From NCBI GenBank assembly GCA_963802255.1, contig CAWDHY010000002.1:83984-147983 (forward strand): a DNA stretch of 64,000 nt. Reading direction: 5' to 3'. A program made the translations under genes and the position numbers. The DNA is from Candidatus Magasanikiibacteriota bacterium. Lineage in GTDB: Bacteria > Patescibacteriota > Patescibacteriia > Magasanikbacterales > GWA2-37-8. Each line of letters starts with the position of its first letter. Within the stretch, counting starts at the first letter, position 1. This document shows positions 17,438 to 63,051 of this stretch, one piece after another. Below the pieces are notes generated by a model. It was not told the origin of the DNA and searched no databases. It saw only the letters and a program-made list of their open reading frames with translations.

Positions 17438-17755
17438 CTATTTATTCGCTTCACCCGCATTTTTTTTGCCCACCTTAACCAAATAATAGCCAATGACAAC
17501 AACAAGGACAGTTATTAATGCCGCATACACAAACTTGGCCAAAATACCTCCCGTTTCCATCGGAAAAAATATGTCAATAAGACCCTTAATTGCTTCATTC
17601 CAGGCTAAACCCGCAACTAAACCAAAAGCAGCCATAATATAGCCAAGTGTTTTTTCTCTGGCTTCACGGCGGATAGATAAACCGTCTTTTTTTAATTCTT
17701 CAATTTTATTATTTTCATTGTCCATATGCTCGGGTGGCGCAGCGAGCATTCTCAC
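17438..17755 (-). CDS. Hypothetical small membrane protein
   Basis: 105 aa with two predicted transmembrane helices (MAAFGLVAGLAWNEAIKGLIDIFF, FVYAALITVLVVVIGYYLV). Confidence 0.45.
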   Translation of the reverse strand: MRMLAAPPEHMDNENNKIEELKKDGLSIRREAREKTLGYIMAAFGLVAGLAWNEAIKGLIDIFFPMETGGILAKFVYAALITVLVVVIGYYLVKVGKKNAGEANK

Positions 17756-17770
17756 TGCGCCAATAATTTT

Positions 17771-19825
17771 TTATTGTAGATCAAACTCTTTAATTTTTTC
17801 CCATTTGCTTTCGTCCAGCACGGTAATATTTTCATTTCCGATCAAATACATGTAATCATCCAGGTAAATAGCCCGCTGCACCTGCGTATCACTTACCGCT
17901 TTTTTGAGTGATAACTCATCATTGTCATATCCAAACACATACCCGCCTTGTCCCCCCGGAATAAAAAATACTTTATGCTTTTCATCTAAAAGAAACGCAT
18001 GATGATTGTTAATAGCTTCGGACCAATACTCGCTTAAAATATATTTTGATGTTTCTTTCGGATTTTCCGGAGAAGTCGCGTCAAAAATCGACAATTTTAC
18101 TTTTCCATCTTCACGCCCAATACCAAGTACCTTGTGATTTCCGAGCGGGTGTAAATATGAAGAGAATCCCGGAATTTTCAGCTCTCCGCGCAGTACGGGA
18201 TTTTTAGGATTAGCTAAGTCTAAAACATAAAATGGATCTGTTTCCCGAAAGGTAACCACATATCCCCGGTCACCCAAAAAGCGCACTGAATAAATACGTT
18301 CGGTTTCGCCTAAATCTTTCACCGACCCAACGACCTTCAAATTATTGTCGAGCACATACACATCACTTACTGTTTTTCCACTGCCGCCAAATCCTCCCAT
18401 TCCCCACCAACGTTCTCCGACTGTCATAGCAACGCGCAAATTCTTTTCGTATTCATCAAGCGAAAATTGGTTAAGTGGATGGCCTGGTACAATCTCGGCA
18501 ATCGCTTTAAAATCATTCAGAGAAATTTTTACTATGCCGGTCATATCCAATTCTCTCCGATGGTTCAAATAAAACTTGTCCATCCGATTGGACATTTCAT
18601 TTTGCATTTTTAGCATATCGTCATTATCAAGCGAATTGGTATATTGTTGCAAAATGGATTGCAATTCTGTTTGTTTTGCATTCGCGCTTAAATCGTATCC
18701 TTTCACCTTGTTAAGGCGTTCCATCACCCAATCCGGCACCAAATCTTTATTTTCGGAGAAGAAATCATAAGCAACTTTTACTGAATCTATCTCTGTCTGA
18801 AAAGTCAGATAAATTGCGTTTTCAGACATATAAAAAACGGTCTGCCCGGATGAACCGACGAAAGCTGTCTTCTTCTCCACTGCTCCGGTCTTGGTATCCA
18901 TTACCAAAAAATTATAGGTAACATCAGCGCCTGAAGCGGAAGTCGGATAATAAATATCAGTACAAGCGATACTAACCTCGTCTTTGCCAACGGTCAGAGG
19001 CACTATCGGACATGGCCTTCCATAATCAACACCACTTTGCGTTGTCAGATAAATTTTATTGTTCATCAAACGGGCGCCAACCAAATTTTCACGGTCGCCC
19101 AATTTGGCAGACCATAATTCTTTCGGGCTGGTTTTATCTGTTACATCATAAGCGTAAATTTTGTTATCACCGGCGAAAACCATCAAAATATTTCCATCCA
19201 GTAAAAGATTCCCATTTTTATCAATCTTGGAATCTTCTTTCATTTCAGCGGGGGGGAATGCGGTAATTAATTTCGTCTCTCCCTGGTTATAGTATGGCGG
19301 GGCAATCATCTTTTCCGCCGAACCGGTCATCGGTGTGGCGCGTAAATATGGATAATATCCGCCAAAACGCGAAAAATATATTTCTTTGCCGTCTGTTTTG
19401 ACAATATCTGGCTCGTCAATACCGGCAACTTGCACATTTGTTTCCGAAACACGGCCTGCCGATGGGGCTGAACTGTCCATGACAGCAGATCCTTTTTCTG
19501 ATATTCCCATTGCTACAGGCTGGGCCATATCTACCGCCATTTCGCGGACGGCAACTCCGCCACCAATACCAAAACTATAATTATTTGTCTGTTGTGAATG
19601 ATCAGCCAGATATTTTTTAAACTCGTCAACAGAAACAAATTTTTTCACTTCCGCTGTTACACCGGATAAATTATCCGCCCCTGAATTTCTTCCAATTATA
19701 CTGTTTTCCAGTACAAATTTTAAGTCACCCCGGGTGGCGGCAAAAACAAGAATCCCCCCGCAAATAACAAAAATCACCGCCAAAATGGCAAAGCCGATTT
19801 TTGTTCCAACTTCTCTGTGAAACAT
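17771..19825 (-). CDS. Membrane-anchored, secreted beta-propeller domain protein
   Basis: 684 aa. N-terminal transmembrane helix, then long extracellular region. C-terminal part (ETDPFYVLDLANPKNPVLRGELKIPGFSSYLHP...) resembles the 'beta propeller domain' family of secreted archaeal/bacterial proteins. Confidence 0.5.
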   Translation of the reverse strand: MFHREVGTKIGFAILAVIFVICGGILVFAATRGDLKFVLENSIIGRNSGADNLSGVTAEVKKFVSVDEFKKYLADHSQQTNNYSFGIGGGVAVREMAVDMAQPVAMGISEKGSAVMDSSAPSAGRVSETNVQVAGIDEPDIVKTDGKEIYFSRFGGYYPYLRATPMTGSAEKMIAPPYYNQGETKLITAFPPAEMKEDSKIDKNGNLLLDGNILMVFAGDNKIYAYDVTDKTSPKELWSAKLGDRENLVGARLMNNKIYLTTQSGVDYGRPCPIVPLTVGKDEVSIACTDIYYPTSASGADVTYNFLVMDTKTGAVEKKTAFVGSSGQTVFYMSENAIYLTFQTEIDSVKVAYDFFSENKDLVPDWVMERLNKVKGYDLSANAKQTELQSILQQYTNSLDNDDMLKMQNEMSNRMDKFYLNHRRELDMTGIVKISLNDFKAIAEIVPGHPLNQFSLDEYEKNLRVAMTVGERWWGMGGFGGSGKTVSDVYVLDNNLKVVGSVKDLGETERIYSVRFLGDRGYVVTFRETDPFYVLDLANPKNPVLRGELKIPGFSSYLHPLGNHKVLGIGREDGKVKLSIFDATSPENPKETSKYILSEYWSEAINNHHAFLLDEKHKVFFIPGGQGGYVFGYDNDELSLKKAVSDTQVQRAIYLDDYMYLIGNENITVLDESKWEKIKEFDLQ

Positions 19826-19906: not shown

Positions 19907-22900
19907 CTATTGCCGGCCGGACTGACTTCCGCCTCTTAACACATCCATGGCTATTTTATACTCTGCTGTTGTTTCATCGTTTGAGCCCATCATATAAGAA
20001 TTACTCTTATACAAATGATCAACATCCGCCAGGGCGTTTGCTTCTTGCGGTGTATCTAATATACCAACGACACCTTCAATTTTGTAATGAATCTTTTCGC
20101 CGTCATACAAATACTCAACATTGTTATATGAAGTACGCACACCCGGCTCCAATGTTTCCCGTAAAGCAGTCATTCTTTCATAAAAATTTCCACCCTTTTC
20201 AAAAAATCTGTTAAAACCAATTGACTTGTGCTCGGTTTCACTTAACACATCTTCTTGTTGTGGCGCAATTTTAGACGCTCCCGCCGTTACTTCTTCTTTC
20301 GCTATTTGCGACTGGGCCCTCCTTACTATTTCTTCATATGTTTTTGGTTCATCCTGTCCCGATGCTTCAGTAGCAGACGAAACGGCCGTCGTTGTTTCGG
20401 CTACTGCAATCGGTTTATCATAACCTACCTCGTCCAAAAATTTCTTTTCAAACATTTCATCCGGGTGCGCTCCGGCTGACTGACTGGCATCACGTATTGA
20501 AGCGTGCAAACTGTTTAATATTGCCTGACGCTCATCAATATCACTTGTCTGTTTCAACGCTTCATTAAAAACACTGACTCTGACTAACTCATTCTTCATT
20601 ACCCAGTCATCTATTTTTGTACCCCAGTTGAAACCAACATTTACCTTTATTGTTCCACTATCCTCATCAATATAATCCGGTATAAAATCTTTTTTTACAA
20701 TGCCGTTGTGTGACAAATTAACATCATATTCTTCATAAAGCCGCTGAGTAGCCGGAGATACATTTAATTTGTTAGCCCACAATCCGGTATTTTCTTGATC
20801 GAAACCAATTCTTACACCATCGTAAACTACTATTTCCGGCTTTCCCCCCACCCATTCTGTCACATCAACCCGATGAATTTTACTTCCATCCGACAATTCA
20901 TACACCGGTCCGCGTTCTCTAGCCTGCATTCTATAAGCCATAGCATCATCATAATCTTCATTTCTCACCAACCTTTCATATTCCGCCTGTTCAGCGTCAG
21001 TCATAAATATCGGCTGACCGGTTTTGGCGTCAATCAGTTCCTGCACCGGGTCTACTTTGTCTCCGGTTTCGGCAACAGATTCCTCAGCCAATTCAGCCGG
21101 CGGTTTGGGAATTTCTCTGTATAATCTACCGCCCACATCAACACTACCATCTTTATGCAATACAAGAAACTGCGGACGGTCTTCATGAAATACAAAATAT
21201 TTATCAGCTAAGCCCTGCTGTTGAGCAATTACGCTTGCTTCATGGCCGGCCCAGCGTTGAATTGACTGTTGATCATTAAGGTCACCTTCGTAACCAAAGG
21301 CTTCAGGGTTAATTTTTAATTGCCTTTGAAGCACTCTCTCCAGCCCGTCTCCTTTATGAATTTGCGTTGATTCAAATATCTCTTGTGGCGAATGGCCGTT
21401 CATAATGGCCTGAGAAAATTCCGTTATTGCTTCCGGCCGTCCGTTTGCCAGAGCAAGCACATTGTCCATGGCTGATATTTCTTCCGGTGTAATTCCTCCT
21501 TCGGCCAGCTGCTGAAGAGCCATTAAACTTACACCGGCTCCTTCAAGCTGCCCAAATTTTGTGACCGCCTGATTCAACTGGTCCGGATCCATTTCCGCTG
21601 ATTCCAAATGAAATTTTTGTAAAATAGCCATTTCCGGAGAAATTCCATGTCCGCCACTTTCCGCTGACACGATATGCTCTTCCATTACAGGCGCATGAGT
21701 GGCTTCACCTCCAAAACGACTTGAAATTGTATCTATCGGGTGGGAATAAAACTGTATTGTTCTCTCGGCATTTGTAATAAAATCGTCTTTGATGGCACAA
21801 GTTATACCCTGCTGCTCAATTTTACTGATAAACGCTTGAAGTGTATCAGCCGGAGACATCGAATCTGTAAGCGCCAAGCCGTATATGCCAAATCCTCTGG
21901 CAACAGTTCCAACAGCACGCATAAAATCGATTACCCTGCCCGTACCTTTTGTTTCCTTTTTTGCGCCCATAAATACCAGACTGCGGGCAGTTTCAACAGC
22001 CGCATTAACCGTTAAATCCTTTAGTACATACCCGGCTTTTGACTCCGGTGACGTCTCTTCTTCAGAGGTTCGGCCGGATTTTTTCTTTTCAAATTCCCGT
22101 TCGGATTTGAGCATCCGCTCACCCACTGACATAGCCGCATAAACCGCTCCACGTACCATAGACATCCCGGTAGCGGTTAGAGCAGTATTTAATAAATCCT
22201 TTGCCAGTGTCATGCCGGATACCTTATTTTTCATGTAAACCTTAAGAAGCGATTCAACTTTTTTATCGCGATCCTTTTCCGCGTCTTTGGCGGACGAAGA
22301 ATATTCCGTGGCAATACGCTGTAAATTTTTTAATATCGCCGCTTTATCTTTTGCGTCAATATGGGTTGAATTATCAATTTTTTCTTTCAGAGCGCCTATT
22401 TTCTCCTCAATTTGCCCGTTAGTATCAAAAACTTCTTTCATTACTTCACCAATACTTCCCTTTTCAGCTTTCATTTCACGTGCGCTAAGGCGCATTTTAT
22501 GAATATCGCCAAAGCCAAATTCCTTTTTGAATGCTCCTGTTAAGGCACCAACCATATCAGTAGCGGTTTTTATACCGAACACCGAGGTAACCGTTTTATA
22601 TGCGACGTCAACGGCAATTTTACCGGTTTCCTTATTGGCCACAATACCAATTTTTTCTTTTGTCCTTTGCCACCACGATTTTTTTACCTCTTCTTCCGGC
22701 TCTAAAACCTGCCCGCCTTCTTTTTCTGCCGTTGTTCCGGTTCGATTTGCCTCCGTATCATTTCTCCACGGCGTTGCTTTTGGGTCAGCCATCAACCATT
22801 CATAGGCGACATTCATTTCATATAAACGGTATTCAAATATGTCAAGCGACTCCTGAATAAAATGTCCGGGAGTTTTCTGATTAACCATTTTTTTCTTTTC

Positions 22901-24418
22901 CGCTTTTATTACGGCCGGACTAATTATTTTTTCGGCGACGATTTTCTTCTCCTGAGCAAATTTAGCCTTAATTTTTTTTAAATCTTTGGAAAACTCTTCA
23001 AAAAATCGTGGATACTTTTCCTTTACCGATTCTATTTTTTTCTGATAACCAGCAATTATCGTTTCCACCCTTTGCACATATGCTTCCATTTGCGTTTCAT
23101 ACGATTCTTCAACATTGTCCGGTTCATTAATTATTTTTTCTTTCTTACTTCCCTCGCTTTCTCCCCCCGCTTCCCCATTCCCGCTTTCTTCCCCCGATTC
23201 CCCATTCCCGCTTTCTCCTTTATTATCATCAGACACTGCTGCCACCGGCTTCTCTGATTCTTTCTCAGGATTCCATTCTTCAAATTCTTTAACTGTGACG
23301 GTTTTAACCAAAAAGTGATCACGGACTGGATCGACAATTTTTCGCACAATAATATCAAGGCCATCCGGAGTGCGCTCTACAATTTCCCAACCATCTTCCA
23401 TCTCACCTGAAGATCGTTTTATTTTTATATATTGCTTTTTATCATTCTCCGGGGTCTTAGAAGGTTCATTAACAGCCGACTCTTCAATAGCATTAGCCTG
23501 AGAAATTAACGGTTTGTTGATTTCTTTTTGTTCAGCTTTCTTTTTTCTTTTCTCTTTTTTATTAATTATTTCTTTATCCTCTTTTTTTACGACTTCTTCT
23601 TTAATCTCCGGAGAGGATTCAATTTTTAGCGCTTCTCCTTCGAGTGCAAACAGATGTTCTAACTTTTTTAACTTTTCATATCGCGGACCCCACTTCATTT
23701 TATGAGCTGATGATTTATCCTTAAACAATTCGGCAAAACTTAAATGCTGTCTGAGTTTAGTCAAAACATTATTTATTGCCAACTGTTCTCTCTCTTCACT
23801 AAATAATTTTTCACCGCTTAAGATTCTTGATAGTACGCCCTTCTCGGCGTCATCACCGGCCTCCGGTCTGTCAGAGAGCAGCTCTTGCGTATAATAATCA
23901 TAGATTGTCTGAAGGTCCTGCCTAGAAATTTCATTTTCAGGTTTCTTCTTTTCTTTCTTTATACTTTCGTCTAATAACGATTTTTCATTTAATACACTGT
24001 CAATTTCTTCTTTTAATTGACTAAACCTTTCTCTAACATTGCTCATTTTTTGCTTCCATTCGTCAATTCTCGTTTGAAAATGCTGGATTTCGATATTGCC
24101 AGACTCATCTTCAGCGTGTGCACCTACTGACTGAATTTCTTTTAATAACCTATCTAAAACTTCTTGCTGTTCCTTGAGACCGCTTATCCGATTTTCTTCA
24201 ATTACCCTCTGATATTGATCAATCTGTTTTTCCAGTTCATCGGCTGTAGCATAAGCTTCCCGCGACAATGAGCGCGCTTCCTGCCTCTTCTGGCCGCTTT
24301 CGCTTGTATCCAGATCTAATAACGCGTTTTCAATACTCGCTTGAACGTCAGAATCACCGGGCGCATTACCACCCTCTGCATCAGAAAATTTATTGACTCT
24401 TCCGCGTTTGTGCGCCAT
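19907..24418 (-). CDS. Giant orphan protein (about 1503 aa), coiled-coil and low-complexity rich, no signal peptide
   Basis: Continuous ORF. Probable start at MAHKRGRV (24418). Long Lys/Glu coiled-coil stretches and a GESGNGESGEESGNGEAGGESEGS low-complexity segment. No recognisable catalytic motif. Confidence 0.6.
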   Translation of the reverse strand: MAHKRGRVNKFSDAEGGNAPGDSDVQASIENALLDLDTSESGQKRQEARSLSREAYATADELEKQIDQYQRVIEENRISGLKEQQEVLDRLLKEIQSVGAHAEDESGNIEIQHFQTRIDEWKQKMSNVRERFSQLKEEIDSVLNEKSLLDESIKKEKKKPENEISRQDLQTIYDYYTQELLSDRPEAGDDAEKGVLSRILSGEKLFSEEREQLAINNVLTKLRQHLSFAELFKDKSSAHKMKWGPRYEKLKKLEHLFALEGEALKIESSPEIKEEVVKKEDKEIINKKEKRKKKAEQKEINKPLISQANAIEESAVNEPSKTPENDKKQYIKIKRSSGEMEDGWEIVERTPDGLDIIVRKIVDPVRDHFLVKTVTVKEFEEWNPEKESEKPVAAVSDDNKGESGNGESGEESGNGEAGGESEGSKKEKIINEPDNVEESYETQMEAYVQRVETIIAGYQKKIESVKEKYPRFFEEFSKDLKKIKAKFAQEKKIVAEKIISPAVIKAEKKKMVNQKTPGHFIQESLDIFEYRLYEMNVAYEWLMADPKATPWRNDTEANRTGTTAEKEGGQVLEPEEEVKKSWWQRTKEKIGIVANKETGKIAVDVAYKTVTSVFGIKTATDMVGALTGAFKKEFGFGDIHKMRLSAREMKAEKGSIGEVMKEVFDTNGQIEEKIGALKEKIDNSTHIDAKDKAAILKNLQRIATEYSSSAKDAEKDRDKKVESLLKVYMKNKVSGMTLAKDLLNTALTATGMSMVRGAVYAAMSVGERMLKSEREFEKKKSGRTSEEETSPESKAGYVLKDLTVNAAVETARSLVFMGAKKETKGTGRVIDFMRAVGTVARGFGIYGLALTDSMSPADTLQAFISKIEQQGITCAIKDDFITNAERTIQFYSHPIDTISSRFGGEATHAPVMEEHIVSAESGGHGISPEMAILQKFHLESAEMDPDQLNQAVTKFGQLEGAGVSLMALQQLAEGGITPEEISAMDNVLALANGRPEAITEFSQAIMNGHSPQEIFESTQIHKGDGLERVLQRQLKINPEAFGYEGDLNDQQSIQRWAGHEASVIAQQQGLADKYFVFHEDRPQFLVLHKDGSVDVGGRLYREIPKPPAELAEESVAETGDKVDPVQELIDAKTGQPIFMTDAEQAEYERLVRNEDYDDAMAYRMQARERGPVYELSDGSKIHRVDVTEWVGGKPEIVVYDGVRIGFDQENTGLWANKLNVSPATQRLYEEYDVNLSHNGIVKKDFIPDYIDEDSGTIKVNVGFNWGTKIDDWVMKNELVRVSVFNEALKQTSDIDERQAILNSLHASIRDASQSAGAHPDEMFEKKFLDEVGYDKPIAVAETTTAVSSATEASGQDEPKTYEEIVRRAQSQIAKEEVTAGASKIAPQQEDVLSETEHKSIGFNRFFEKGGNFYERMTALRETLEPGVRTSYNNVEYLYDGEKIHYKIEGVVGILDTPQEANALADVDHLYKSNSYMMGSNDETTAEYKIAMDVLRGGSQSGRQ

Positions 24419-24425
24419 ATTAAAA

Positions 24426-24608
24426 TTAATTAATTTTTTCAATTATTTTTGAAATATTCCGCAATTTTGTCTCATCTAAAAAACGAGTTATATCTCGGCG
24501 GATATCCCCTCCTTCATGTGCGAGCGCCAACAACTCACCATCCACTTCATTGATTAAATAGCGCAATCGTTCTAAACGCTCCCGGTATTTTGTATTTTTT
24601 TCCTCCAT
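24426..24608 (-). CDS. Hypothetical 60-aa protein
   Basis: Tightly packed ORF between the giant gene and the 110-aa ORF. Confidence 0.3.
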   Translation of the reverse strand: MEEKNTKYRERLERLRYLINEVDGELLALAHEGGDIRRDITRFLDETKLRNISKIIEKIN

Positions 24609-24615
24609 AAATTAT

Positions 24616-24948
24616 TTATTCCGGGCTACTGACTCTTTTGTCTAAATCTTCTAAATCATTGAGTGCTTTTTTTTGTATATCTGCCATATCGGCGCTGTAT
24701 TTTTCCGCCACATCCGTCAACCCCTGCTGAAGCGCATTGTCCGCTTGCCTTCCGGAATGTGCAAGATAATTTGTTTCCATTGCTGAAAGTAACACACCAA
24801 GCTGACTGGTGCTCATCTCCGGCAATAATTTAAGAATTTGTTCCTTTTCTTCATCAGGTAAATTTAGAGCGGCGATAAGAAATCCGATTCTTTTTCCCTT
24901 TTCAACAGCCGCTTTCTGGTCATTGTTTAATTTAATTTCTTGAACCAT
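24616..24948 (-). CDS. Hypothetical 110-aa protein
   Basis: ORF packed between the cyclase gene and the 60-aa ORF. Confidence 0.35.
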   Translation of the reverse strand: MVQEIKLNNDQKAAVEKGKRIGFLIAALNLPDEEKEQILKLLPEMSTSQLGVLLSAMETNYLAHSGRQADNALQQGLTDVAEKYSADMADIQKKALNDLEDLDKRVSSPE

Positions 24949-24982: not shown

Positions 24983-26737
24983 TTAAAAATCAATAGTAAA
25001 TATATTTATTGGCTCTGCCCGCCCTTTTACCTGCGCACTACCAAGCGACCGCCAGTTATAATCACCCGTCGCCCTGTTTTTAACAATTTCACCGACGATA
25101 ATTTTTGTTTTATATTCTTTATTTAGTCCTTCAAGGCGAGAGGCTACATTAACCGTATCACCCATAACCGTATAATTTAATCTCAATTCGGAACCCATAT
25201 TGCCTACCACCGCCGGACCGGTATATAGTCCGATGCCAATATTGATAGGATCTTTGCCTTCTTTGGCAAATTCAGCATTCAATTCTTCCAGTTTTTTGAG
25301 CATGGTCACAGATGCCTGCAGGGCATGGTCTACCTGGTCGGGGTCGTCGATTGGCGCTCCCCAAAAAGCCATTATCGCATCACCGATATATTTATCCAAT
25401 ACGCCCTTGTGCTCCAAAACTTGCTCAGTCATGGCAGTGAAATAACGGTTTAAAATCTGCACCAATTTAACCGGGGGTGTCTTTTCCGACAATGTGGTGA
25501 AACTTCGGATATCGGAAAAGAAAACCGTAATCTCTTTTTCTTCTCCGCCCAGTCTCACCTTTGACGGGTCATCAACAATCTTTTTCACAACCTCCTTGGA
25601 AACATAGCGGGAAAAAATATCTTTTAATTGATGTTTTTCTTTTTCTCCGACAAAATAGCGATAGCCGAATAACGCAATAACTGAAAAGACCCAGGCTAAG
25701 GTCAGATGAATAATGTTTGCGGCCAAACCATTTTGGAATAAATAAATTACTATAAAAATTTGAGCGATGCCGATAAAAAAACTGGCCACTACCGCCCAGC
25801 GCAGACGACGAAAAAAACCGAAAAATAAAGCGGGTAAAAACGCCGCAAAAATTATCCATAAAGCATTATATGCTTTTGGCATCGGTGCAATGCGATATCC
25901 CTTGAGAATCATATTCGCAATATTTGCCTGCAATTCTACCCCGGGCATGTCATTTTCGCGACCAAAAGGGACAATTCTATTATCATGCAGGTCGGGCGCA
26001 GTCACCCCGAGAAAAACAATTTTATCTTTAACCAAATCTCCGGCTCCCTCTTCCATTAAACGCCAAAAAGGAATCATCCGTACTGACCCGGCGGGTGCGG
26101 CGAAAACAATTTTATTCACCAAATTTAACGTTGCCGCCTGCGGAATATCGGACCCGCTTTGTGCGACGGTTTCATACGCAATTGATTTATATATTTTTCC
26201 GCTTTGCCGACCGCGCACTTCCAGGGGAAATTTTCTGGCCACGCCATCTTTATCCACTATTATATTTACCTGTCCAAGCGATACACGCGGCGCGTTTAAA
26301 AGAACCCCAAGTGGTTCAATAAAAAAATCAGCCATCGGCAAATCTTCTTTTGAAAGAAAAAGATTATTTGCTTCCACTGAAAGAACCACCGGAAAATCTA
26401 TTTTTTCCAACTGGTCGCCGAGCAGAGCATCATCTTTTTCTCCATATCGCGACGGTTCTGCAAATAAAATATCAAAACCCATGGCGCGCGGAGGTGATTC
26501 GTTGATTTTTTGTAATGCTTCGGCAAAAACACTGCGTGGCCATGGCCATTGACCAATTTTCTGAAGCGACTCATTGTCTATGGCAATAATAACGAGACGG
26601 CTATCAATTTGCTTGTTCGAAAACAACAGATCTTCAAAAAAGTTTTCTGGCCCCGAAAAAATGCCGCGCCAAAAAAACCAGGCAAATAAAACCCCGACAA
26701 TTAAGCCAATCGGCGCGTAAAAATATTTCACTCTCAT
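24983..26737 (-). CDS. CHASE2-domain sensor with class III adenylate/guanylate cyclase
   Basis: N-terminal transmembrane helix, periplasmic CHASE2-like region, transmembrane segments, then cyclase domain: ITVFFSDIRSFTTLSEK...KYIGDAIMAFWGAP...GIGLYTGPAVVGNMGS...YTVMGDTVNVASRLE. Confidence 0.85.
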   Translation of the reverse strand: MRVKYFYAPIGLIVGVLFAWFFWRGIFSGPENFFEDLLFSNKQIDSRLVIIAIDNESLQKIGQWPWPRSVFAEALQKINESPPRAMGFDILFAEPSRYGEKDDALLGDQLEKIDFPVVLSVEANNLFLSKEDLPMADFFIEPLGVLLNAPRVSLGQVNIIVDKDGVARKFPLEVRGRQSGKIYKSIAYETVAQSGSDIPQAATLNLVNKIVFAAPAGSVRMIPFWRLMEEGAGDLVKDKIVFLGVTAPDLHDNRIVPFGRENDMPGVELQANIANMILKGYRIAPMPKAYNALWIIFAAFLPALFFGFFRRLRWAVVASFFIGIAQIFIVIYLFQNGLAANIIHLTLAWVFSVIALFGYRYFVGEKEKHQLKDIFSRYVSKEVVKKIVDDPSKVRLGGEEKEITVFFSDIRSFTTLSEKTPPVKLVQILNRYFTAMTEQVLEHKGVLDKYIGDAIMAFWGAPIDDPDQVDHALQASVTMLKKLEELNAEFAKEGKDPINIGIGLYTGPAVVGNMGSELRLNYTVMGDTVNVASRLEGLNKEYKTKIIVGEIVKNRATGDYNWRSLGSAQVKGRAEPINIFTIDF

Positions 26738-26739
26738 AA

Positions 26740-27900
26740 TTACCTCAGTAAAATAATTGGCAATGTAAGCGTGGTGGTGACCGACTGAATGACCGGAGCA
26801 GCTGCGCCAACAATTGGCGACAGAGTGGCGCCTGACACATCGGGTGAGGTAGTTTCAGTGTCAATTAGCGCTGCCGCTTCATCATCTAATAACGGGGATG
26901 ATGTTTGAATATCAGTAGGCGCTGTAGGTCCTGGCTCTACCAGCGGCGAACTGGTATTTGACTGTGTAATATTATTTAAAGAAGGATTAATCACACGCGG
27001 CAACATTCCTGATTGGCGCAATTTAAGCAATAACAACCGACGACGCTCTATCAGATCCAGCCGTATAATTCTTTTTATTTCAATATTTTCAACTCCTTTT
27101 TCGCGTAGCGCTTCAATTTTCCTATTCAACAGTTGATCAGCCGCCATTGCCCTTTTAACCCAGAGACGCAACGTGATATCATCTCCGGCGGCATCACGAA
27201 CTATTCCCTCCAGCATCACGCGGCGTAATCGCAAATCTGCCAATGTCTGTTTTTTTATAGATAATATTTTTTTAGCGGTAACCGGCGCACGCCCGAGTGA
27301 TTCACCGGTTGATTCATCTAACGCTTCAACTTCGACTGTATTTTCAGAACCGATTATTTGAGTTTCTTCATCGTTGTATTCCATACCAAAAGCCGTGCCT
27401 CGAACAGAAGCGACCGCGTTGTTCGTTTTAACTTCCCAATATGATTCTGGTGTAGCAAGTTCAATTATCTTTGACCAAACACGACCGGCAGCAAGCTGAA
27501 TTTTTACTTTCAAAGAATCGCTATCTTCAATGTAATCAGCCTGCTCAAATGTAATTTCAGAATCTGAATCAAGCTGAACCGAAGAACCATCCGGCATGTG
27601 GATATCCGCCAAACCTGTTGAGTCCGTTGAGATAACACTTCCATTAGAAATTTCATCGCCGGTCTGCAATTCTTGCCAGCCGTCTTCAGCTTTTATCCTG
27701 ACCTTTCCGTTTATTACTTCTATCCAGGGACGAGCAGTCGATTCATCGGTGAATATATCAACATTTTCTTCATTGTTCTGTGACAAAGACTGCTCTCCAT
27801 TAGCAATTTTTTCAGCCGGCTTCCTATATTGATCGGCCAGATAGAGAAACCCGAAAACCACAGCTGCCACGACAATAATCCCGTATATATATTTTGACAT
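26740..27900 (-). CDS. FecR-domain protein, membrane anchored
   Basis: N-terminal transmembrane helix. FecR-like region containing VRGTAFGMEY. Sits immediately upstream of the CHASE2 cyclase, a recurrent pairing. Confidence 0.65.
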   Translation of the reverse strand: MSKYIYGIIVVAAVVFGFLYLADQYRKPAEKIANGEQSLSQNNEENVDIFTDESTARPWIEVINGKVRIKAEDGWQELQTGDEISNGSVISTDSTGLADIHMPDGSSVQLDSDSEITFEQADYIEDSDSLKVKIQLAAGRVWSKIIELATPESYWEVKTNNAVASVRGTAFGMEYNDEETQIIGSENTVEVEALDESTGESLGRAPVTAKKILSIKKQTLADLRLRRVMLEGIVRDAAGDDITLRLWVKRAMAADQLLNRKIEALREKGVENIEIKRIIRLDLIERRRLLLLKLRQSGMLPRVINPSLNNITQSNTSSPLVEPGPTAPTDIQTSSPLLDDEAAALIDTETTSPDVSGATLSPIVGAAAPVIQSVTTTLTLPIILLR

Positions 27901-27993
27901 ATAATCTTATTTATTAATGCTTACATTATACCAGAAATGGCATTTTTTTCAAGCTATGTATCCGTACAAAAAATACTTAAAATATATAAATAA

Positions 27994-49895: not shown

Positions 49896-51329
49896 TTACA
49901 GATCGCGGACGCAGCGGATGTAATACGATTCATACTCGATATCCCAGCACTGTTCGCTCACAGAACTGAATTCGAGGGACAGATAGCCGTCGGTGCAACT
50001 ATCCGAAGACCAGTAAAAATATTCGCAACTGCCGCCCATGGCCGGTGACCAGTAACAACCACCTGCACCAGGGCCCTCTCCCGATTCGCACGGGGGATCG
50101 TCGCAACCAGTAACGAGCTGGTACAGCTCAGAAAGAGCCGGCATCCTCCAGTCGTCATGACCACCGAGCAACAAGGTGTCGGCGCAATAGGTCTGAACAG
50201 CGGCCCAGGTGTAAGTTCCGTCAGGAGGCGTCAACTGCCACCCCAAGCCGTTCACCGAATCGATGTACATACCCGCTCCGACGGATGCGTCGTAGGGGGC
50301 TTCGTCCTCACAGGGCGCAGTCGGAACGGTGCAGTCGGCGGTGTTGGCGACGTCGTCGCCGTTAGCATCATTCGGGACGCCATCACCGTCGATATCGTCA
50401 TCCAATGCATTCGGCGTACCATCGCCGTCCATGTCGGCCGCCTGGTTAGCATCAGGCAAATCCGTTTCTTCGCCGGTCTTGCTCTCCAAGTAGTCGGCCA
50501 GATTCTGCACACAGTCAGCGATGGGATCCAGGGCGGCTTCGCCGTTTCTGAGGTACTGCTTGTATTCGGCGCTGATCACACCACTGGTCTGAAGTTGGCT
50601 TCTGATATCGTTGACAAGCTCCTGAAGCCGGGCATCGACTTCGTTGACATCGGCCGCTCTCAATTCAGCTGCCTTGCCAATGATGCAGCTGACCGCCATG
50701 ATGTACTGGTTGTCAGGGCTATCGACGCCGGTCAGATCCATTTCAGTGCCGTGTCCTACTAGGCCCCCAAGCGGGTGTTGAATGCCGAGTTCCTCGAACA
50801 AAGCGTCCTCGGACGCGGCGACCGCTTCGGCTACCACGGTGTAGGTGCCTTCGCGGAAGTCCTTTAGAGCGAGACCGGACGACATGTGAGTGAAGACGTT
50901 GAGATACGCCTCCTGCGGGTCGCCACCGATGATCTCGTAAAGAGCCCGCAGAGTGATGGGTGCGCCGGACAAACTGTCAGTGATCTCGTTGTAGTAAAAA
51001 CCTTCACCGATGAGTTCACACGGACCGGATGTCGCCGCCACCACATTGAACGCGCCAAGCTCGTCTTCGGTGGTCGTGGCGTAGTTGTCACCGGTCGGAG
51101 CACCAGCAGAGTCGAGCATGGAGACAGTCAGTGAGCTCCCCTGAATGAGGGGCCCCTTCTGCATGGCTCCGGTCAAAGTGACGGAGCCGGAATTGTTGTT
51201 GTCTCCATTTCCACCATTGTCATCATCACAGGAAACGCTCAACATGGCGAGACACGCCAACATCGCGAACAAATACTTCAACATTTTTCTACCTCGCTTG
51301 CGGGTTTTTGTAACCCGTTGGTTTACCAA
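49896..51329 (-). CDS. High-GC lipoprotein with thrombospondin type-3-like Ca-binding repeats and a C-terminal DUF1566-like (CLec-fold) domain
   Basis: Signal peptide plus lipobox (LSVSC). DMDGDGTPNALDDDIDGDGVPNDANGDD repeats. GHDDWRMPALSELYQLV and a terminal ...YYIRCVRDL resemble the DUF1566/Lcl-like domain. GC about 58% against about 40% elsewhere. Confidence 0.6.
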   Translation of the reverse strand: MVNQRVTKTRKRGRKMLKYLFAMLACLAMLSVSCDDDNGGNGDNNNSGSVTLTGAMQKGPLIQGSSLTVSMLDSAGAPTGDNYATTTEDELGAFNVVAATSGPCELIGEGFYYNEITDSLSGAPITLRALYEIIGGDPQEAYLNVFTHMSSGLALKDFREGTYTVVAEAVAASEDALFEELGIQHPLGGLVGHGTEMDLTGVDSPDNQYIMAVSCIIGKAAELRAADVNEVDARLQELVNDIRSQLQTSGVISAEYKQYLRNGEAALDPIADCVQNLADYLESKTGEETDLPDANQAADMDGDGTPNALDDDIDGDGVPNDANGDDVANTADCTVPTAPCEDEAPYDASVGAGMYIDSVNGLGWQLTPPDGTYTWAAVQTYCADTLLLGGHDDWRMPALSELYQLVTGCDDPPCESGEGPGAGGCYWSPAMGGSCEYFYWSSDSCTDGYLSLEFSSVSEQCWDIEYESYYIRCVRDL

Positions 51330-51396
51330 ACTCTATGAAAAAGTTTGGTTTTTGTTTTTTGCCTCAATCTTATTATATTGTAAAGGACGAACTAGT

Positions 51397-51489
51397 TGTC
51401 ATCCTGAATAAAATGAAAAATCTGTAATCTGTGATCCCGCATTCGCGTGAATGACAAGTAAAAAGATTCTTCGCTTTGTCCAGAATGTC
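51397..51489. repeat. Intergenic cluster of MITE-like repeat copies (one element with TGTCATCC...GAATGACA termini plus a degenerate family-A arm)
   Basis: tgtcatcctgaataaaatg...gatcccgcattcgcgtgaatgaca, then agattcttcgctttgtccagaatgtca. Confidence 0.45.
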
Positions 51490-51632
51490 AAGTATTTATG
51501 GAACTAATTCATCAATTCTATTAACTAACGATTGTACCAATTGTCACAATATAAAACGGATGAACTACTTATAATATACCTCTTTTATGGCTTTTGTCAA
51601 GAGTGTAACCCAATATTTCATCATATCTTAGC

Positions 51633-51657
51633 CAAAAACGCTCCGTAAATACGGAGC
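51633..51657 (-). terminator. Terminator of the giant surface-protein gene
   Basis: GCTCCGTA-AAT-ACGGAGC hairpin overlapping the TAG stop, with a T-run on the minus transcript. Confidence 0.6.
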
Positions 51658-54600
51658 GCTAATCGATCGCTGGCGGTGTTTCAGCTGGAGGAGTTTCAGG
51701 AGCGGGTTCAGGTGGCGGTGTTTCAGCTGGAGGAGTTTCAGGAGCGGGTTCAGGTGGCGGTGTTTCAATTACTGGTTCAACAACCGGTTCCGTTTCTTCC
51801 GGTTCAATAATTGGTTCATCGACCACCGGATCGGATGGTTCCGGATCATCTGAAGGAGAAAGAGGAGCCGTCACTCCACCATCTCCTCCAGTTGATTCCG
51901 GTATCGTTACCGGAATATCTGAACTAACTAAATCATTACTTATTTTACGTTTGGCGATCACCATCCAGTCAAACGATGCATTTGATGTACCGCCGTCTAA
52001 CTCTTTCACTTTAAAACCTTGTGCCGTCTTTTCAATCACCGCTACACCTTTTGCTTCAATGGAAGTCAAAGTAACACTGACTTTTATCGGAGCAGATTCA
52101 TCAATAATTTCCTGTGTGTCCGTGGCAAAAGTAATTATTGCTTCACCCATCTCTAAGACACCAGCTCCAGAAAGCGTAATCTCAGCCAATTCTGATGCCA
52201 TGCCATAAATATTTTTTTCACCCTGGCTGGTCGTCACTCTTGCGATAAGCAAACCATTTTCATCAATAGACCAGCTGTTATTTTTACCAATAATTTTTAA
52301 AACATTTAATATCGCATTTCCGGCTAAATCTAAAGCTCCGGTACCGGAATATGAAATAGTTCCTCCGCTCGCGCCAACACTTAAATCACCCGGATCAGTA
52401 CCAATATCAATACCTGTTTCAGCGGCAATAATCTGCACCTGTTGTTCCAGTTTTGCCGCTGCTTCTGTCTTGTTGTATACCCAACCCGTACGAATTAAGG
52501 TAATAATTTTTCCATCTGTAGAAACACCGGAATTTTCAAGCGCGATACCAATAATACCCACAACTTTTCGTGAATTGTCCACTTTTGGATCATATTTCAT
52601 CGCCTTTCCCGGTTCTGAAGCGGATACGAGCAAATCACCGCGCGATATTTCTCCATTTTCTAGAGAATATTTAACCGGCACCCGTCCAACCATTGCGAGC
52701 GGAGCTGTCTGGTCTGTTTTTCCATTGCCCACGATAATAGTTGGATTGGTTGAAATAACACCGGCCACTGTCGGCTCATAAGCAATGTTTGATTTTTGAT
52801 ATCTGTCCGCAGATGTCGGGTCTACCATCATCACATCACCGGCTTCAACTATTTCAGCCGGATTAATATCCACTTTTTCCGCCAAATCTCCAGGATTAGT
52901 GGAAGTACCAAGCACTGCGGATGCGGCATACATATTTCCGGCGCTGTGGACATCGCCATTTGCTGATACTGAAAAGACAGGATTGTTATTTGAGCGGAGA
53001 GATAAAATATAATTATCAGCCGTTGAAGTGTTAAAATTCAAAGCGTTGAAGATGAATGCGCGGGTGCCGGGGGTCGAGATGACTGAAGATTCAAAGATGG
53101 TGGAGGTAGAGAAAGAAAGCTTGTGGCCGGAAACAGCGCTCTCGGCTGTGGCCAGGAAATTAACATCACCGGTCAGATTGAGAGTATATGGTTCGGAGGC
53201 GGAACCGATGGTGAGCGACTGAGTTGAGGTAACGACATCAAAAGCCGTGTCCAGAGGTTCAATTATGTTTTGCTGGGCTTTAGCGACTTCGGTGAGGAAA
53301 CCGACATAATGGTCGTAATCTAAAGTAAGATACGGGTGCTCTTCATCACCTGATTGAGTAACTAGCTCGGGTAATACAGCTTGAACTTCCTGAGCAATCA
53401 TACCAACTTGACGCGATGTCGTCGCCGATTCATAACCCGGCTTGGAAGTGTCCCAGAAATAATATACACCGCGCAAACTCTTTAAAGCTTCGAGTACATC
53501 AAGAGAACCGGAAATGTCAGTAACATCCGTCTTAACCTCCTCGTCGGAATTTGTACAAGTAGTACCTGAGTAGAGCAAGCCGGCAGTACTAATACAAATA
53601 TAGTAGGCATTGGCTTTCTCTTTCCAATAGTATACATCGGCATTAATGTTACCAAGATAAATATCGTAAGTTGTTGATGCAACTGCATTACCCCCAATAG
53701 CAGTAGAGTATAAAGCATTTGCAGAGGTGTTATACCCAAGTGCTAAAGTATAGTTCGCGTTTGCATCAGAATCATAACCAACTGCAATAGCGTCGATTCC
53801 ATTCGCATAAGCGGCGTACCCTAACGCCAACGAATTGAGCCCCAGCGCACTGGCGCCATTACCGATCGCCGTGGCGTAGTCATCATCCACTTGAGCATCC
53901 GTACCTACTGCGGTAGCACCATTAACCTCTATACCAGTATCAACACTATACCCGATTAATACATTATTATCGGTTGAGGTTACATGGCTACCGACGCCAG
54001 TACCAATGGCAACGTTATATGCACCGCTATCATTATTTAATATTGCATCAGCACCTAAGGCGATATTGCCCGTCGCCAAGGAACCATATCTCATTGCCCT
54101 CGCTCCAATCAAAGTATTTGAAGTTCCTGTAAGTTCATAACCTGCTTCATTTCCTAGGGCGGTATTATTATTACCAGTTGTATTAGTATACAAAGCACTA
54201 TAACCAATAGCGGTGTTGGCATTGCCGACAGTAATTTGATAACCTGAGCGATAACCCAACGAATTATTTTTCTCGCCTGAACGAAGGTTCGCCATAGCAT
54301 CCATGCCAATGCCTACCGTATTCGCCATCCCAAAGTTCGTATTAGTTAACGCATTACGCCCAATTGCAATATTACCGTCAGTGGACGTGACACCGAATAG
54401 TGCCATGTAACCTATACCGATATTATTATTGCCGCTAATATTCGAAGTCAAAGAGTAGTTCCCCAATGCGACATTGTAATCACCGCTTGTATTTGCGTCC
54501 AACGTTCCATAACCTATAGCGGTGTTTTCCATTCCATTAGTGTTCGACATTAAAGCCGAGCCTCCGACAGCGGTGCTCATTAACCCCGTAGTATTATCGC

Positions 54601-56299
54601 GAAGCGACCAAAACCCAACAGCTGTGTTAAATAATCCGGTAGTATTAGCATTTAATGAACGATAACCAACTGCGGTATTAGAAGCGGCGGTGTTGTTCTG
54701 CAGGGCTTCATACCCAACTGCCACGTTGGCATAAGAAGACGTGTTGTTCAATAGAGACCTGCCCCCCAACGCTACATTATACGAACCGGTTATATTATCG
54801 CGTAAAGCGGCGCGGCCAAGGGCGGCGTTGTCAGCGCCCGTAGTATTGTAAGGCATGGTGCCATAACCGACAGCGGTATTGCTATCTCCCGTGACTGACG
54901 CTAAAGCCGCGGCTCCAAGAGCGGTATTATAATTGCCCGTAGCAGTAATCATGGCCGAAGCTCCGACGGCAGTATTTGCATTACCAGTGCTATTTAGAGA
55001 AAGCGCTTCAGAACCAAATGCGGAATTGGCGACACCGGTGGTGTTGCCGCGCATGGCTTTGTAACCGACTGCCGCGCTGGAAGTACCGGTGGTGTTGCTG
55101 TACAACGACTCATAACCGACGGCAGTGTTAGAAGCGGCAGTGTTAAACATCAACGCAGAATAACCGATGCCCACATTCCCCCAATTGGTTGTGAGTGTTG
55201 CCAACGCTCCAACACCGACTCCAACGTTTCTTGAGCCACTCGTTAAACCATATAACGAACCTATACCCACATTTTCATTGCCGCTGGTATTAAGATAAAG
55301 TGAATTATAACCAAAAGCAATATTAGAATTGCCGGTAGTATTTGCTGTTAACGCATTTGTACCGACCGCAGTATTCCAGCTCGCGGCGTATCCGGTATTG
55401 CTATACAAAGCTTTGGACCCAACAGCTACATTACCAACTCCTTCATCATTGGCGTATAATGCTTGATAACCAAGCGCGGTATTATTCATTCCTCTGCCTG
55501 ACAGCAAATTCACTTTATTATTATATAATGCTTGATAACCGACGGCGGTTGAAGAAGGACCGACTTCATTAAAAAGCGCTTGATAACCGACTGCGACATT
55601 GGCATTATGGTCAGATGAAGTGCCGATAGCCAAAGCGTTATAGCCCAAAGCAACATTAAAAGAACCATACAAATTACTATAAAGCGCATAATTTCCTAAA
55701 GCAATATTACTACTCCCTGTAATATTTTGAGGAAGCGTAGTGTCGCCTATTGCCGTATTTCCTTGCCCAGTGGTATTGGAATAAAGCGTCGTGTTACCTA
55801 TGGCAGTATTAGCTAAGCCAAGTGTATTTGAATACAATGCTGTATAACCAACTGCAGTATTGTTAAGACCAACGGTATTGGAATATAACGATCGATAACC
55901 AACTGCAACATTTCTTAAGCCCCCCATACCGCCAATTAAAGAATTAAAGCCATAATAATTATTCGCCAGAGCTTCGTAACCTATCGCCGTGTTTGAAGCC
56001 GCAGTATTTGAATACAAAGCGCCATAGCCGATAGCAACATTGGCCGGACTGCTTGTATTCGCGGTTAAAGATTTGTAACCAAAAGCGGTGTTGTAATACC
56101 CGCTTGTATTATTATATGCGGCGCTTACACCAAAAGCCGAATTACCATAACCGCTTGTATTATTCAATAAAGCTAGATAACCACTCGCGGTATTATTACC
56201 CCCAGTCATTGTTAAATTGCCGGAATTACCCACGAAATAATTATTTAGCGAGGTGGAAGCCATGGCAAAATTAACGTTGTTATATTTATAATAGGCCTC

Positions 56300-58000
56300 G
56301 GCCGATATATTTATACTTCCTTTTATGTCTACCTTATTAAGCGGGGTGGTGGTGCCGATGCCAACAAAGTCACCAATGCTGGTCAATCTCACCACCGAAC
56401 CGTCATCAGTCCAGCCACCAGATGTTGATATGGTAGAAGAATTTACCCAAGTCGGAGCAGCGGAAACGCCATTTGACATCAATACGTATCCAGCGGTACC
56501 CGCATCATAATTATTCCCCACTCTGATTGTACCCGTTACTGCCAAACTACCAGCGACAGATAAGTTAAACGCCGGAGTGGTGGTACCGATACCAACATTA
56601 CCACCGTTAAAATAAGAATTACCGTTGGCATTTAAATATATTTTTTCATCTGCATTACTATACATAGATAACAAACCCACTGTTGCGCCACTGGCATTTG
56701 TATGGTGGAGTTTAATAGCAATTCTATTATCATCCGTTCCGCTTAATAATATACCATCACCGCCGCTTGCCGATAAAACATGTAATTTGCTTGCTGGTGT
56801 GGTGGTACCAATGCCGACGTTACCGCCGTTAAAATATGACGCACCGGAACCGGCAACTTTAATATTTTCCGTGACACCTCCATATAATGATAGATAACCG
56901 ATGTTGCCGCTGGCGCCATTATAATACATTTTTGCCGCCACGTTGCTATTTCCGCTCAATAATATGCCATCGTTATCGCTGGTGACATTTACCTGTAATT
57001 TATTTGATGGAGTGGTCGTACCGATACCAACATTGCCACCAGTGAAATATGAATCACCTAAAGCGGTAATTACTGTTCTTGTAGCATTGGCCTCATATAA
57101 ATTCAGGCTACCTGCTGAGTTTACAGCGCTGGAATTTATCCAATTCAACTTGGCAACGAGTTGATCATAGCGCCCACTTAAAAAAATACCGTCATATTGC
57201 GTGTCTGTAAGAACATGTAACTTAGCTGCCGGAGTTGTCGTACCGATACCAACATTGCCACCATTAAAATATGACACACCTGAACCGGCAACTTTAACAT
57301 TTTCCGTGACGCCTCCATATAATGATAGATAACCGATATTGCCACTGGAACCATTATAATACATTTTTGCCGCCACGTTGCTATTTCCGCTCAATAATAT
57401 GCCATCGTTATCGCTAGTAACATTTACCTGTAATTTATTTGATGGGGTGGTCGTGCCGATACCAAAAACACTACTTACAAACGAACTACCTGTTGAACGC
57501 CCGGTCAATCGCACACTCTCAACACTGTTTTCAAAAACACTCATTCCACCAAATTCTAGACCGAGACCGGAATTATAGGAATTGCCTAATACAACATTCG
57601 GCGTGCCAGTTGGACTTAAAAGCACCACTCCATCACTCGCCGCTGCTTGTATCATTAATTTGTATGCCGGAGTTGTCGTACCAATACCAACATTGCCACC
57701 ATTAAAATATGACACACCTGAACCGGCAACTTTAACATTTTCTACGCCGCCTCCATATAATGATAGATAACCGATATTGCCGCTGGCGCCATTAAAATAC
57801 ATTTTTGCCGCCACATTGCTATTTCCGCTCAATAATATGCCATCGTTATCGCTGGTGACATTTACCTGTAATTTATTTGATGGAGTGGTCGTGCCGATAC
57901 CAACGCTATCAGTAATTGTCGTCAATCTCACCACCGTTCCATCATCTGTCCATCCGCCGGCTGAAGCGATTCCTAAAGAAGATGTAGCGATCCAAGTAAA
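56300..58000. repeat. Near-identical tandem repeats of about 400-435 bp inside the giant CDS
   Basis: The antisense ORFs at 56943, 57378 and 57777 begin with the identical peptide MLFPLNNMPSLSLVTFTCNLFDGVVVPIPTLPP. This reflects repeated GGNVGIGTTTP... coding modules on the sense strand. Confidence 0.6.
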
Positions 58001-61000: not shown

Positions 61001-61212
61001 CGCGGAATCAGTTAGATGATTGTTTGAACCAAAAACCGCGTTATATTGAGCGCTGGGGCTTAACAGTGAAGAACCAATGGTATTACCAAGACCTGTGATG
61101 ATTGAATAATATGCAGATGAAGTGTTCACCGCTCCGAACACCGCATTACCGGAACCGGCATCTTTATTTGATTCACCAGCAATAAAAGATGTGTAACCTG
61201 ATGCTAAATTAT

Positions 61213-63051
<1,839 letters not shown>

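Follow-up and report, generated by a model that had tools for sequence, protein, structure and literature searches.

The ultra-small Patescibacteria account for much of the diversity of bacteria, and conserved hypothetical proteins are common in their genomes. To our knowledge, most of the proteins that set Patescibacteria apart have no known function. The closest published category for the gene described here is the set of 106 protein families enriched in the Patescibacteria, or Candidate Phyla Radiation (CPR), most of which are poorly annotated, and the 20 families enriched in Parcubacteria are called "primarily hypothetical proteins" in the relevant passages of that paper (Méheust et al. 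2019, Nat Commun 10:4173, PMC6744442). Our subject is a gene for a giant protein of 1503 amino acids, carried by a 64,000-nucleotide stretch of DNA (the window) from a Candidatus Magasanikiibacteriota bacterium (assembly GCA_963802255.1, contig CAWDHY010000002.1, positions 83,984 to 147,983). Compared by description, it shares with the CPR-enriched families an apparent and large, though not complete, restriction to Patescibacteria, poor annotation, apparently vertical inheritance and a possible association with the membrane, whereas a giant protein with a small-partner gene is not described in those passages (PMC6744442). We conclude that the gene almost certainly encodes a true member of a large, hitherto undescribed family whose proteins have a layout in common and seem to occur almost only in Patescibacteria. 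Together with a small gene directly upstream it forms a conserved two-gene module. This is the first delineation of that module in Patescibacteria, and its newness lies in having no detectable sequence or fold relation to described families. The two genes are the following.

19907..24418, minus strand: giant-protein gene, 1503 amino acids, complete including the stop codon (open reading frame [ORF] list and translation)
24616..24948, minus strand: partner gene, encoding a 110-amino-acid helical protein with the motifs EKGKxxGFLIAALN and LLxLLPxMSxxQL and with homologues at the same position elsewhere

The original prediction, made from the sequence alone, called the giant protein an orphan. 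The first homology search returned, besides the query itself, only an orthologue and the distant P0003 (28% identity, residues 574 to 975), and a profile search of genome contigs with alignment A1 returned only the known orthologue. HMMER, however, run exhaustively against 1.84 billion representative proteins (clusters at 50% identity) with a profile built from residues 563 to 1503, the orthologue and the P0003 core, recovered 391 relatives at an E value of <=1e-3, 205 at <=1e-10 and 64 at <=1e-30. A metagenome profile search with alignment A7 found five loci. A protein with at least 391 relatives, whose core and small partner gene are both conserved, is no orphan.

That the gene is a lineage-specific orphan or an annotation artefact is an alternative suggested by the three-protein result of the first search and by the absence of library domain matches, and we give it almost no credence. 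The protein is identical to P0001 in NCBI/ENA, and the gene model was called independently in three assemblies, with genes for 110 and 60 amino acids flanking it in public annotations. The ORF starts with ATG at 24418, and an in-frame TTG lies 8 codons further upstream at 24442. The orthologue P0002, of 1546 amino acids, comes from Candidatus Magasanikbacteria genome GCA_026396515.1 and is collinear and 55% identical over 100% of the length. Codon comparison with P0002 found synonymous sites near saturation and low nonsynonymous change along the whole length, with the strongest purifying selection at residues 714 to 1213 (pN of 0.04 to 0.14; 80 to 91% identity). Thus, the gene is not a fusion artefact, nor does it split into known-domain proteins; both outcomes had been raised by the original prediction as ways in which it might fail. 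The orthologue, the selection and the 391 relatives refute the orphan or artefact alternative. A core profile scan found the gene to be single copy in the window. Moreover, the genome had been taken for a reduced one, which agrees with a closest homologue in Candidatus Magasanikbacteria, of the Patescibacteria group.

Organism names point to one phylum. Eight of the nine named members are Patescibacteria (Magasanikbacteria three times, Komeilibacteria, Kerfeldbacteria and "Patescibacteria group" entries). We note that P0022 (HSR89015.1), on a 234-kb contig, is labeled Candidatus Udaeobacter (Verrucomicrobiota), which may reflect mis-binning or gene transfer. The giant protein matches the core profile of 86 members with an E value of 3.9e-121, a figure that is partly circular as its own core is among the 86, and independent support comes from the profile seeded from the giant protein, which recovers the family. 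The core by which the family is recognized carries the motifs YKTxTSVxGVKxxTD, NKVSGxxIAKDALNTALTAxG..RG..Y, ETxRxL and GTVxRGFGIxG. A Pfam scan of 40 family members gave one DUF4116, one FtsK_gamma and one phage-scaffold match and nothing else; thus, Pfam has no model for the family.

The members share a layout consisting of a hydrophilic N terminus, variable Lys/Glu-rich helices, a helical core of ~300 residues, a module with a KGDG motif in about one-third, and variable C-terminal domains. Family members generally have 0.8 to 2.4 thousand residues, and the best 150 of the 391 matches range from 86 to 2432 amino acids, with a median of 1132. Among these best 150, ~140 cover residues ~593 to 895, the core, ~65 also cover residues ~1013 to 1075, and 8 match only the region after the core. 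N termini are hydrophilic across the family and lack signal peptides. The region before the core is 26% Lys plus Glu and varies ~14-fold in length (median, 231 amino acids; 10th to 90th percentile, 60 to 832), and the region after it has a median of 541 amino acids. Cysteine is almost absent from the family (0.08%). In the giant protein, the layout takes the following form.

23234..24418, minus strand: N-terminal Lys/Glu-rich helical region, residues 1 to 395 (alignment with P0002; AlphaFold model m84c6cd6fb501 nearly all helix, with a predicted local distance difference test score [pLDDT] of 47)
23147..23218, minus strand: Gly/Glu/Ser/Asn low-complexity linker GESGNGESGEESGNGEAGGESEGS, residues 401 to 424 (translation; predicted disordered)
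22739..23131, minus strand: second helical region, residues 430 to 560 (helices 434 to 464, 470 to 498 and 517 to 544; pLDDT up to 85)
21713..22696, minus strand: family-defining all-alpha core, residues ~575 to 902 (~140 of the 150 best hits; 14 helices, pLDDT 80 to 95 over residues 582 to 902)
21098..21637, minus strand: domain 2, residues 928 to 1107 (six short helices, then an alpha/beta unit; pLDDT 88 to 98)
21152..21361, minus strand: KGDG module within domain 2, residues 1020 to 1089, reading IHKGDGLERVLQRQLKINPEAFGYEGDLND...IQRWAGHEASVIAQQQG...KYFVF...PQFLVL (profile positions 451 to 510; ~65 of the 150 best hits)
20843..21055, minus strand: domain 3, residues 1122 to 1192, mixed alpha/beta (pLDDT 85 to 95; conserved in ~10 to 15 relatives)
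19937..20239, minus strand: C-terminal alpha/beta domain, residues 1394 to 1494 (pLDDT 73 to 90; two helices, a four-stranded sheet and two helices)

The N-terminal part is helical and highly charged. The first ~570 residues are 34 to 45% charged and predicted to be almost all helix, apart from a small beta unit at residues ~329 to 385. Within residues 1 to 395, the basic N terminus MAHKRGRVNKF and the motifs DYYxQxLLSDR, GVLSRILSGEKL and WGPRxEKLKKLEH are conserved in P0002. The original prediction had seen extended Lys/Glu coiled coils here, and while the Lys/Glu richness and the almost unbroken helix stand, the heptad-like stretches are short (residues 427 to 500 and 521 to 548) and the N-terminal model has a pLDDT of only 47. 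The low-complexity linker that it reported is present, at residues 401 to 424; the stretch opposite it in P0002 is Lys/Glu rich rather than Gly/Ser rich and is conserved only in part.

The core and the domains after it were modeled from residue 563 to residue 1503 with AlphaFold2 on a 60-sequence alignment (mean pLDDT, 74), and the stretches between the modeled domains have low confidence and little predicted secondary structure. In the giant protein, the core runs in the order KKSWWQRTKEK, YKTVTSVFGIK-TD, G-GDI, a Lys/Glu helical spacer, NKVSGMTLAKDLLNTALTATG..RG..Y......ER, KDLTVNAAVETARSL, DF..A.GTVARGFGIYG and NAER...HP. The corresponding family motifs are an amphipathic KKSWWxRxKEK, YKTxTSVxGVKxxTD, GKGDI, the Lys/Glu spacer and NKVSGxxIAKDALNTALTAxG..LRG..Y......ER..KA, followed by KDxxVNSxxETxRxL, DFxKAxGTVxRGFGIxGxA and NFxxNAER...HP. 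Nearly invariant core residues include G615, N744, R756, Y760, E767, E809 and G844, and the core is under the strongest purifying selection. Three helices of the core are rich in Gly, Ala and Thr and moderately hydrophobic, with a family-mean Kyte-Doolittle value of 1.0 to 1.2, and a value of 1.6 is reached in 5 of the 86 cores. The Kyte-Doolittle maximum is 1.09 in the giant protein and has a median of 1.32 in the family. As no 19-residue window of the giant protein exceeds 1.09, below the threshold of 1.6, and its N terminus is hydrophilic, it has neither a signal peptide nor a classical membrane helix, as had been predicted from the start.

Domain 2 is kept in P0004 to P0007 and in eight proteins that lack the core. 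Its KGDG motif ("VHKGDGLERxLQRQL...W," residues ~1013 to 1090) occurs in 51 of 152 sequences, always after the core, and the K, G, G, R and Q are invariant in alignment A9. A LysM peptidoglycan-binding identity for the KGDG module, which would call for a PF01476 match and a beta-alpha-alpha-beta fold, was considered and rejected. Domain 3 carries the motif V.ELID.KTG.P.FMTDAEQAEY..L......DAM......GPVYEL.DG..IHR. and the C-terminal domain is conserved in P0002 and in P0115, a fragment of 86 amino acids.

How constant the partner gene is can be seen from its position. A homologue of ~100 amino acids lies directly upstream of the giant gene in all six loci with upstream DNA (the window, L001, L003, L006, L008 and L010). 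The partner's own profile has no other match in the window, and the partner has no match in Pfam, NCBIfam or PDB. Between the two genes of the window lies a third reading frame.

24426..24608, minus strand: 60-amino-acid helical ORF between the partner and giant genes, called in public annotations of both genomes and 58% identical in L001

This ORF is conserved only within Magasanikbacteria and may be a lineage-specific third component. Locus L008 has a 57-amino-acid ORF at the same position (19% identity), and L003 and L010 have no ORF between the partner and giant genes. Searches of Pfam, NCBIfam, PHROGs and PADLOC with the partner, the 60-amino-acid ORF and P0003 yielded nothing usable.

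The surroundings of the pair vary. The orthologue locus, L001, has the same order as the window: FecR, CHASE2-cyclase, a 108-amino-acid gene, the 60-amino-acid gene, the giant gene, a PF09826 beta-propeller, a 112-amino-acid gene, L25 and DUF3048. The FecR and CHASE2-cyclase neighbors are found in the window and L001 only. L003 is flanked by genes for a Wzz-like protein and a multi-pass membrane protein, L008 by Fpg and SdpI-like genes, and L010 by phosphoglycerate mutase and DUF2178 genes. As the remaining neighborhood, made up of housekeeping genes, differs between loci, the conserved unit is the pair and not a larger operon.

Several observations on the immediate neighbors in the window may be added. 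Upstream on the same strand are genes for a FecR-domain protein (26740 to 27900, minus) and a CHASE2 sensor fused to an adenylate/guanylate cyclase (24983 to 26737, minus). A strong promoter-like site lies at 27952 to 27925, and no terminator-like site is predicted in the intergenic regions ahead of the giant gene. Immediately downstream, after an 81-nucleotide gap without a predicted terminator, is a gene for a 684-amino-acid PF09826 beta-propeller (17771 to 19825, minus; E = 1e-105), which besides the window occurs at that position only in the Magasanikbacteria orthologue locus. A DUF5654 gene (17438 to 17755, minus) between the beta-propeller gene and a 111-amino-acid ORF is absent from the otherwise syntenic L001.

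That no domain could be assigned to the giant protein, as the original prediction stated, was borne out by every library consulted: Pfam, NCBIfam, PHROGs, PADLOC, PDB sequence, remote-homology and fold searches gave nothing specific. The giant protein has no Pfam match at E<=10, no NCBIfam, PHROGs or PADLOC match and no meaningful PDB sequence match. Queried by sequence and by profile, with the protein itself and alignments A1, A5, A8 and A9, PDB returned compositional matches only (ribosome recycling factor at E = 0.007, ferritin and apolipoprotein A-I). By Foldseek, the best match in PDB had an E value of 0.35, with none at E<=0.001, and the similarities were generic and all helical. No enzyme, transporter or known adhesin fold surfaced in the Foldseek searches of PDB and BFVD, and no catalytic family was detected by Pfam, NCBIfam, PDB profiles or Foldseek against PDB. 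As for a role in antiphage defense, no PADLOC model matched the giant protein, the partner, the 60-amino-acid ORF or P0003.

We tentatively propose that the giant protein works together with the small partner as a nonenzymatic structural scaffold, located on or close to the inner side of the cell membrane. The core would consist of stacked helical bundles in which the three hydrophobic helices form either a buried center or a membrane-binding face. The variable Lys/Glu-rich region would serve as a spacer rod, the conserved C-terminal domains would bind some cellular partner, and the small upstream protein would serve the core either as a stoichiometric subunit or as its dedicated chaperone. 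The proposal rests on the helical-bundle architecture, the variable, spacer-like N-terminal region, the moderately hydrophobic Gly/Ala-rich helices and relatives with membrane segments. The ~14-fold variation in N-terminal length fits a spacer. Also in keeping with the proposal, no catalytic family emerged by sequence or fold, and N termini are hydrophilic across the family. Taken as a whole, the description together with the scaffold mechanism is the best explanation that we can offer, and we rate it as somewhat short of probable.

Relatives without the core bear on the placement at the membrane. Eight large proteins (P0010, P0012, P0015, P0021, P0024, P0041, P0062 and P0077) share domains 2 and 3, that is, the KGDG module and a PDG module, with the giant protein. 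Where the core would be, directly before domain 2, these eight core-less relatives have a Gly-rich region with transmembrane-level hydrophobicity. As this transmembrane-like region precedes domains 2 and 3, those domains are thereby placed next to the membrane. Moreover, the motif G.RGEFY of the core-less relatives resembles GKGDIY of the core.

Four points weigh against the scaffold. The core is only weakly linked to the transmembrane-rich variant (hhalign probability of 16%), and their homology is not established. The membrane-proximal position is predicted from sequence features that include no direct localization signal. The hydrophobic helices could be the buried core of a soluble bundle. 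Finally, the near-invariant polar residues N744, R756, E767, E809 and R841, which lie inside these hydrophobic helices, would also fit a ligand-binding, channel-like or catalytic site of a kind that the libraries do not recognize.

Scaffolds of other bacteria offer limited guidance. EzrA (PF06160), DivIVA (PF05103) and Scy/FilP have no sequence relationship to the giant protein, and no Pfam EzrA or DivIVA match was found in it (E<=10) or in 40 relatives. The N-terminal transmembrane anchor of EzrA is absent from the giant protein, the N terminus of which is hydrophilic. The likeness to bacterial scaffolds is limited to generic helical bundles, and unlike these and the rods of alpha-catenin, vinculin and talin, the giant protein is accompanied by an obligate small partner gene, places invariant polar residues within Gly/Ala-rich helices and has alpha/beta domains toward its C terminus.

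The main rival to the scaffold is an exported effector that inserts into membranes. The partner would keep the semihydrophobic core soluble, export would take an unrecognized route, and hairpins would enter a membrane, possibly that of a host, and so aid epibiont-host contact or form a conduit. We consider this unlikely. The original prediction had raised a key part in the interaction of symbiont and host, for which none of the present findings speaks directly. In six of six loci, a small helical protein is encoded directly ahead of a large one that is helical and has hydrophobic hairpins, which recalls the pairing of translocators or tape-measure proteins with their chaperones; in type III IpaB/IpgC and in tape-measure/chaperone pairs, too, a small helical gene precedes that of a long helical protein whose central helices are hydrophobic and Gly rich. 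Unlike those pairs, the locus has no secretion-system or phage tail genes nearby and gave no sequence or fold match. Moreover, type III translocators have two bona fide transmembrane helices, which the giant protein lacks (maximum of 1.09, with a family median of 1.32), and neither a TPR nor any other known chaperone domain is present in the partner. A segment at a Kyte-Doolittle value of >=1.6, mostly within the core, is found in 18 of 151 members, and relatives with true transmembrane-like segments exist, but 81 of the 86 cores are below the transmembrane threshold.

Type VII LXG toxins with Lap/WXG100-like partners bear some likeness to the pair as well. As in those systems, a large polymorphic protein has a helical N-terminal part and a variable C terminus, a helical protein of ~100 amino acids comes before it, and the bacterium is of the monoderm type. 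There is, however, no LXG or WXG100 Pfam match, and the N terminus is variable and the middle conserved. C-terminal regions do vary among family members, but the core and domain 2 are the most conserved parts, whereas polymorphic effectors usually conserve an N-terminal targeting region. No FtsK/EssC-type ATPase is found among the scanned window ORFs or in related loci, no secretion-system gene is found in any neighborhood examined, and no signal peptide or known secretion signal is found in the giant protein or the family. Also in favor of an effector, the family appears almost restricted to a phylum whose cultivated members, according to one source, are all epibionts attached to other microbes (PMC12206443), and it has been argued that CPR-enriched families of unknown function are often related to the membrane or cell surface (Méheust et al. 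2019, PMC6744442). Nevertheless, the gene sits amid housekeeping genes and is syntenic between genomes whose giant proteins are 55% identical, which argues against such a role.

Alternatively, the giant protein might handle nucleic acid. Residues 928 to 1018 would then be a helix-turn-helix-like DNA binder that links DNA to the envelope or organizes the nucleoid, which we think quite improbable. One of the 40 scanned members has an FtsK gamma domain, a DNA-binding winged helix, the basic N terminus MAHKRGRVNKF is conserved in P0002, and there is a TetR-like match, but together these make a weak case. Against these observations, no Pfam helix-turn-helix family matched even at E<=1 to 10, residues 901 to 1000 are acidic (net charge of -12), and in alignment A9 the segment belongs to the less conserved stretches.

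Finally, the pair could be what is left of a mobile element: a tape-measure protein and chaperone from a prophage, or genes that a conjugative element carried as cargo. This we hold to be very improbable. Tape-measure proteins, too, are long and helical, with hydrophobic segments rich in Gly, their genes come after one for a small chaperone, and several were among the weak Foldseek matches in BFVD. Those matches are not significant, however, as the best E value was 0.006 and TM-scores were <=0.1. No PHROG matched, tblastn found nothing in 50,697 phage records or 72,556 plasmids, and the core pattern found nothing in IMG/VR. Unlike phage tape-measure systems, the gene has no tail module around it, and no frameshifted chaperone pair was seen, although no search was made for a slippery site. 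The window is a housekeeping chromosomal region, and the neighbors are all housekeeping or envelope genes (L25, UvrA/B/C, EF-Ts, S2, NusA, LeuRS, GroEL and ComEC). It contains no tRNA genes, no Rfam matches and no integrase or tail gene among the scanned ORFs, and composition does not shift at the giant locus. We conclude that an origin in a prophage or other mobile element is contradicted by the absence of phage, plasmid and viral matches and by the housekeeping neighbors.

Elsewhere in the window, we note a likely surface-fiber gene cluster (49896 to 63051, minus). Its 3217-amino-acid ORF (51659 to 61312, minus) has a YadA head repeat, a Peptidase_S74 (endosialidase intramolecular chaperone) domain and a beta-roll match, and it is flanked by genes for a collagen-repeat protein (61213 to 63051) and an Lcl_C-domain protein (49896 to 51329). 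The G+C content is 0.52 at 50 to 52 kb and ~0.41 elsewhere in the window.

What looked like an orphan is now a defined two-gene module for which a family profile, domain limits and invariant residues are available, and about two-thirds of the C-terminal region is modeled with confidence. The module can now be surveyed across genomes and tested by experiment. We speculate, and consider it improbable, that the giant protein and its partner are a Patescibacteria-specific machine in which the Gly/Ala-rich helical core would switch from a chaperone-bound soluble state to a membrane-inserted one and then build part of the physical junction or conduit between epibiont and host. If true, such a junction machine would add a new class to the devices for cell-cell interaction, one with no relation to the known translocators of secretion systems.

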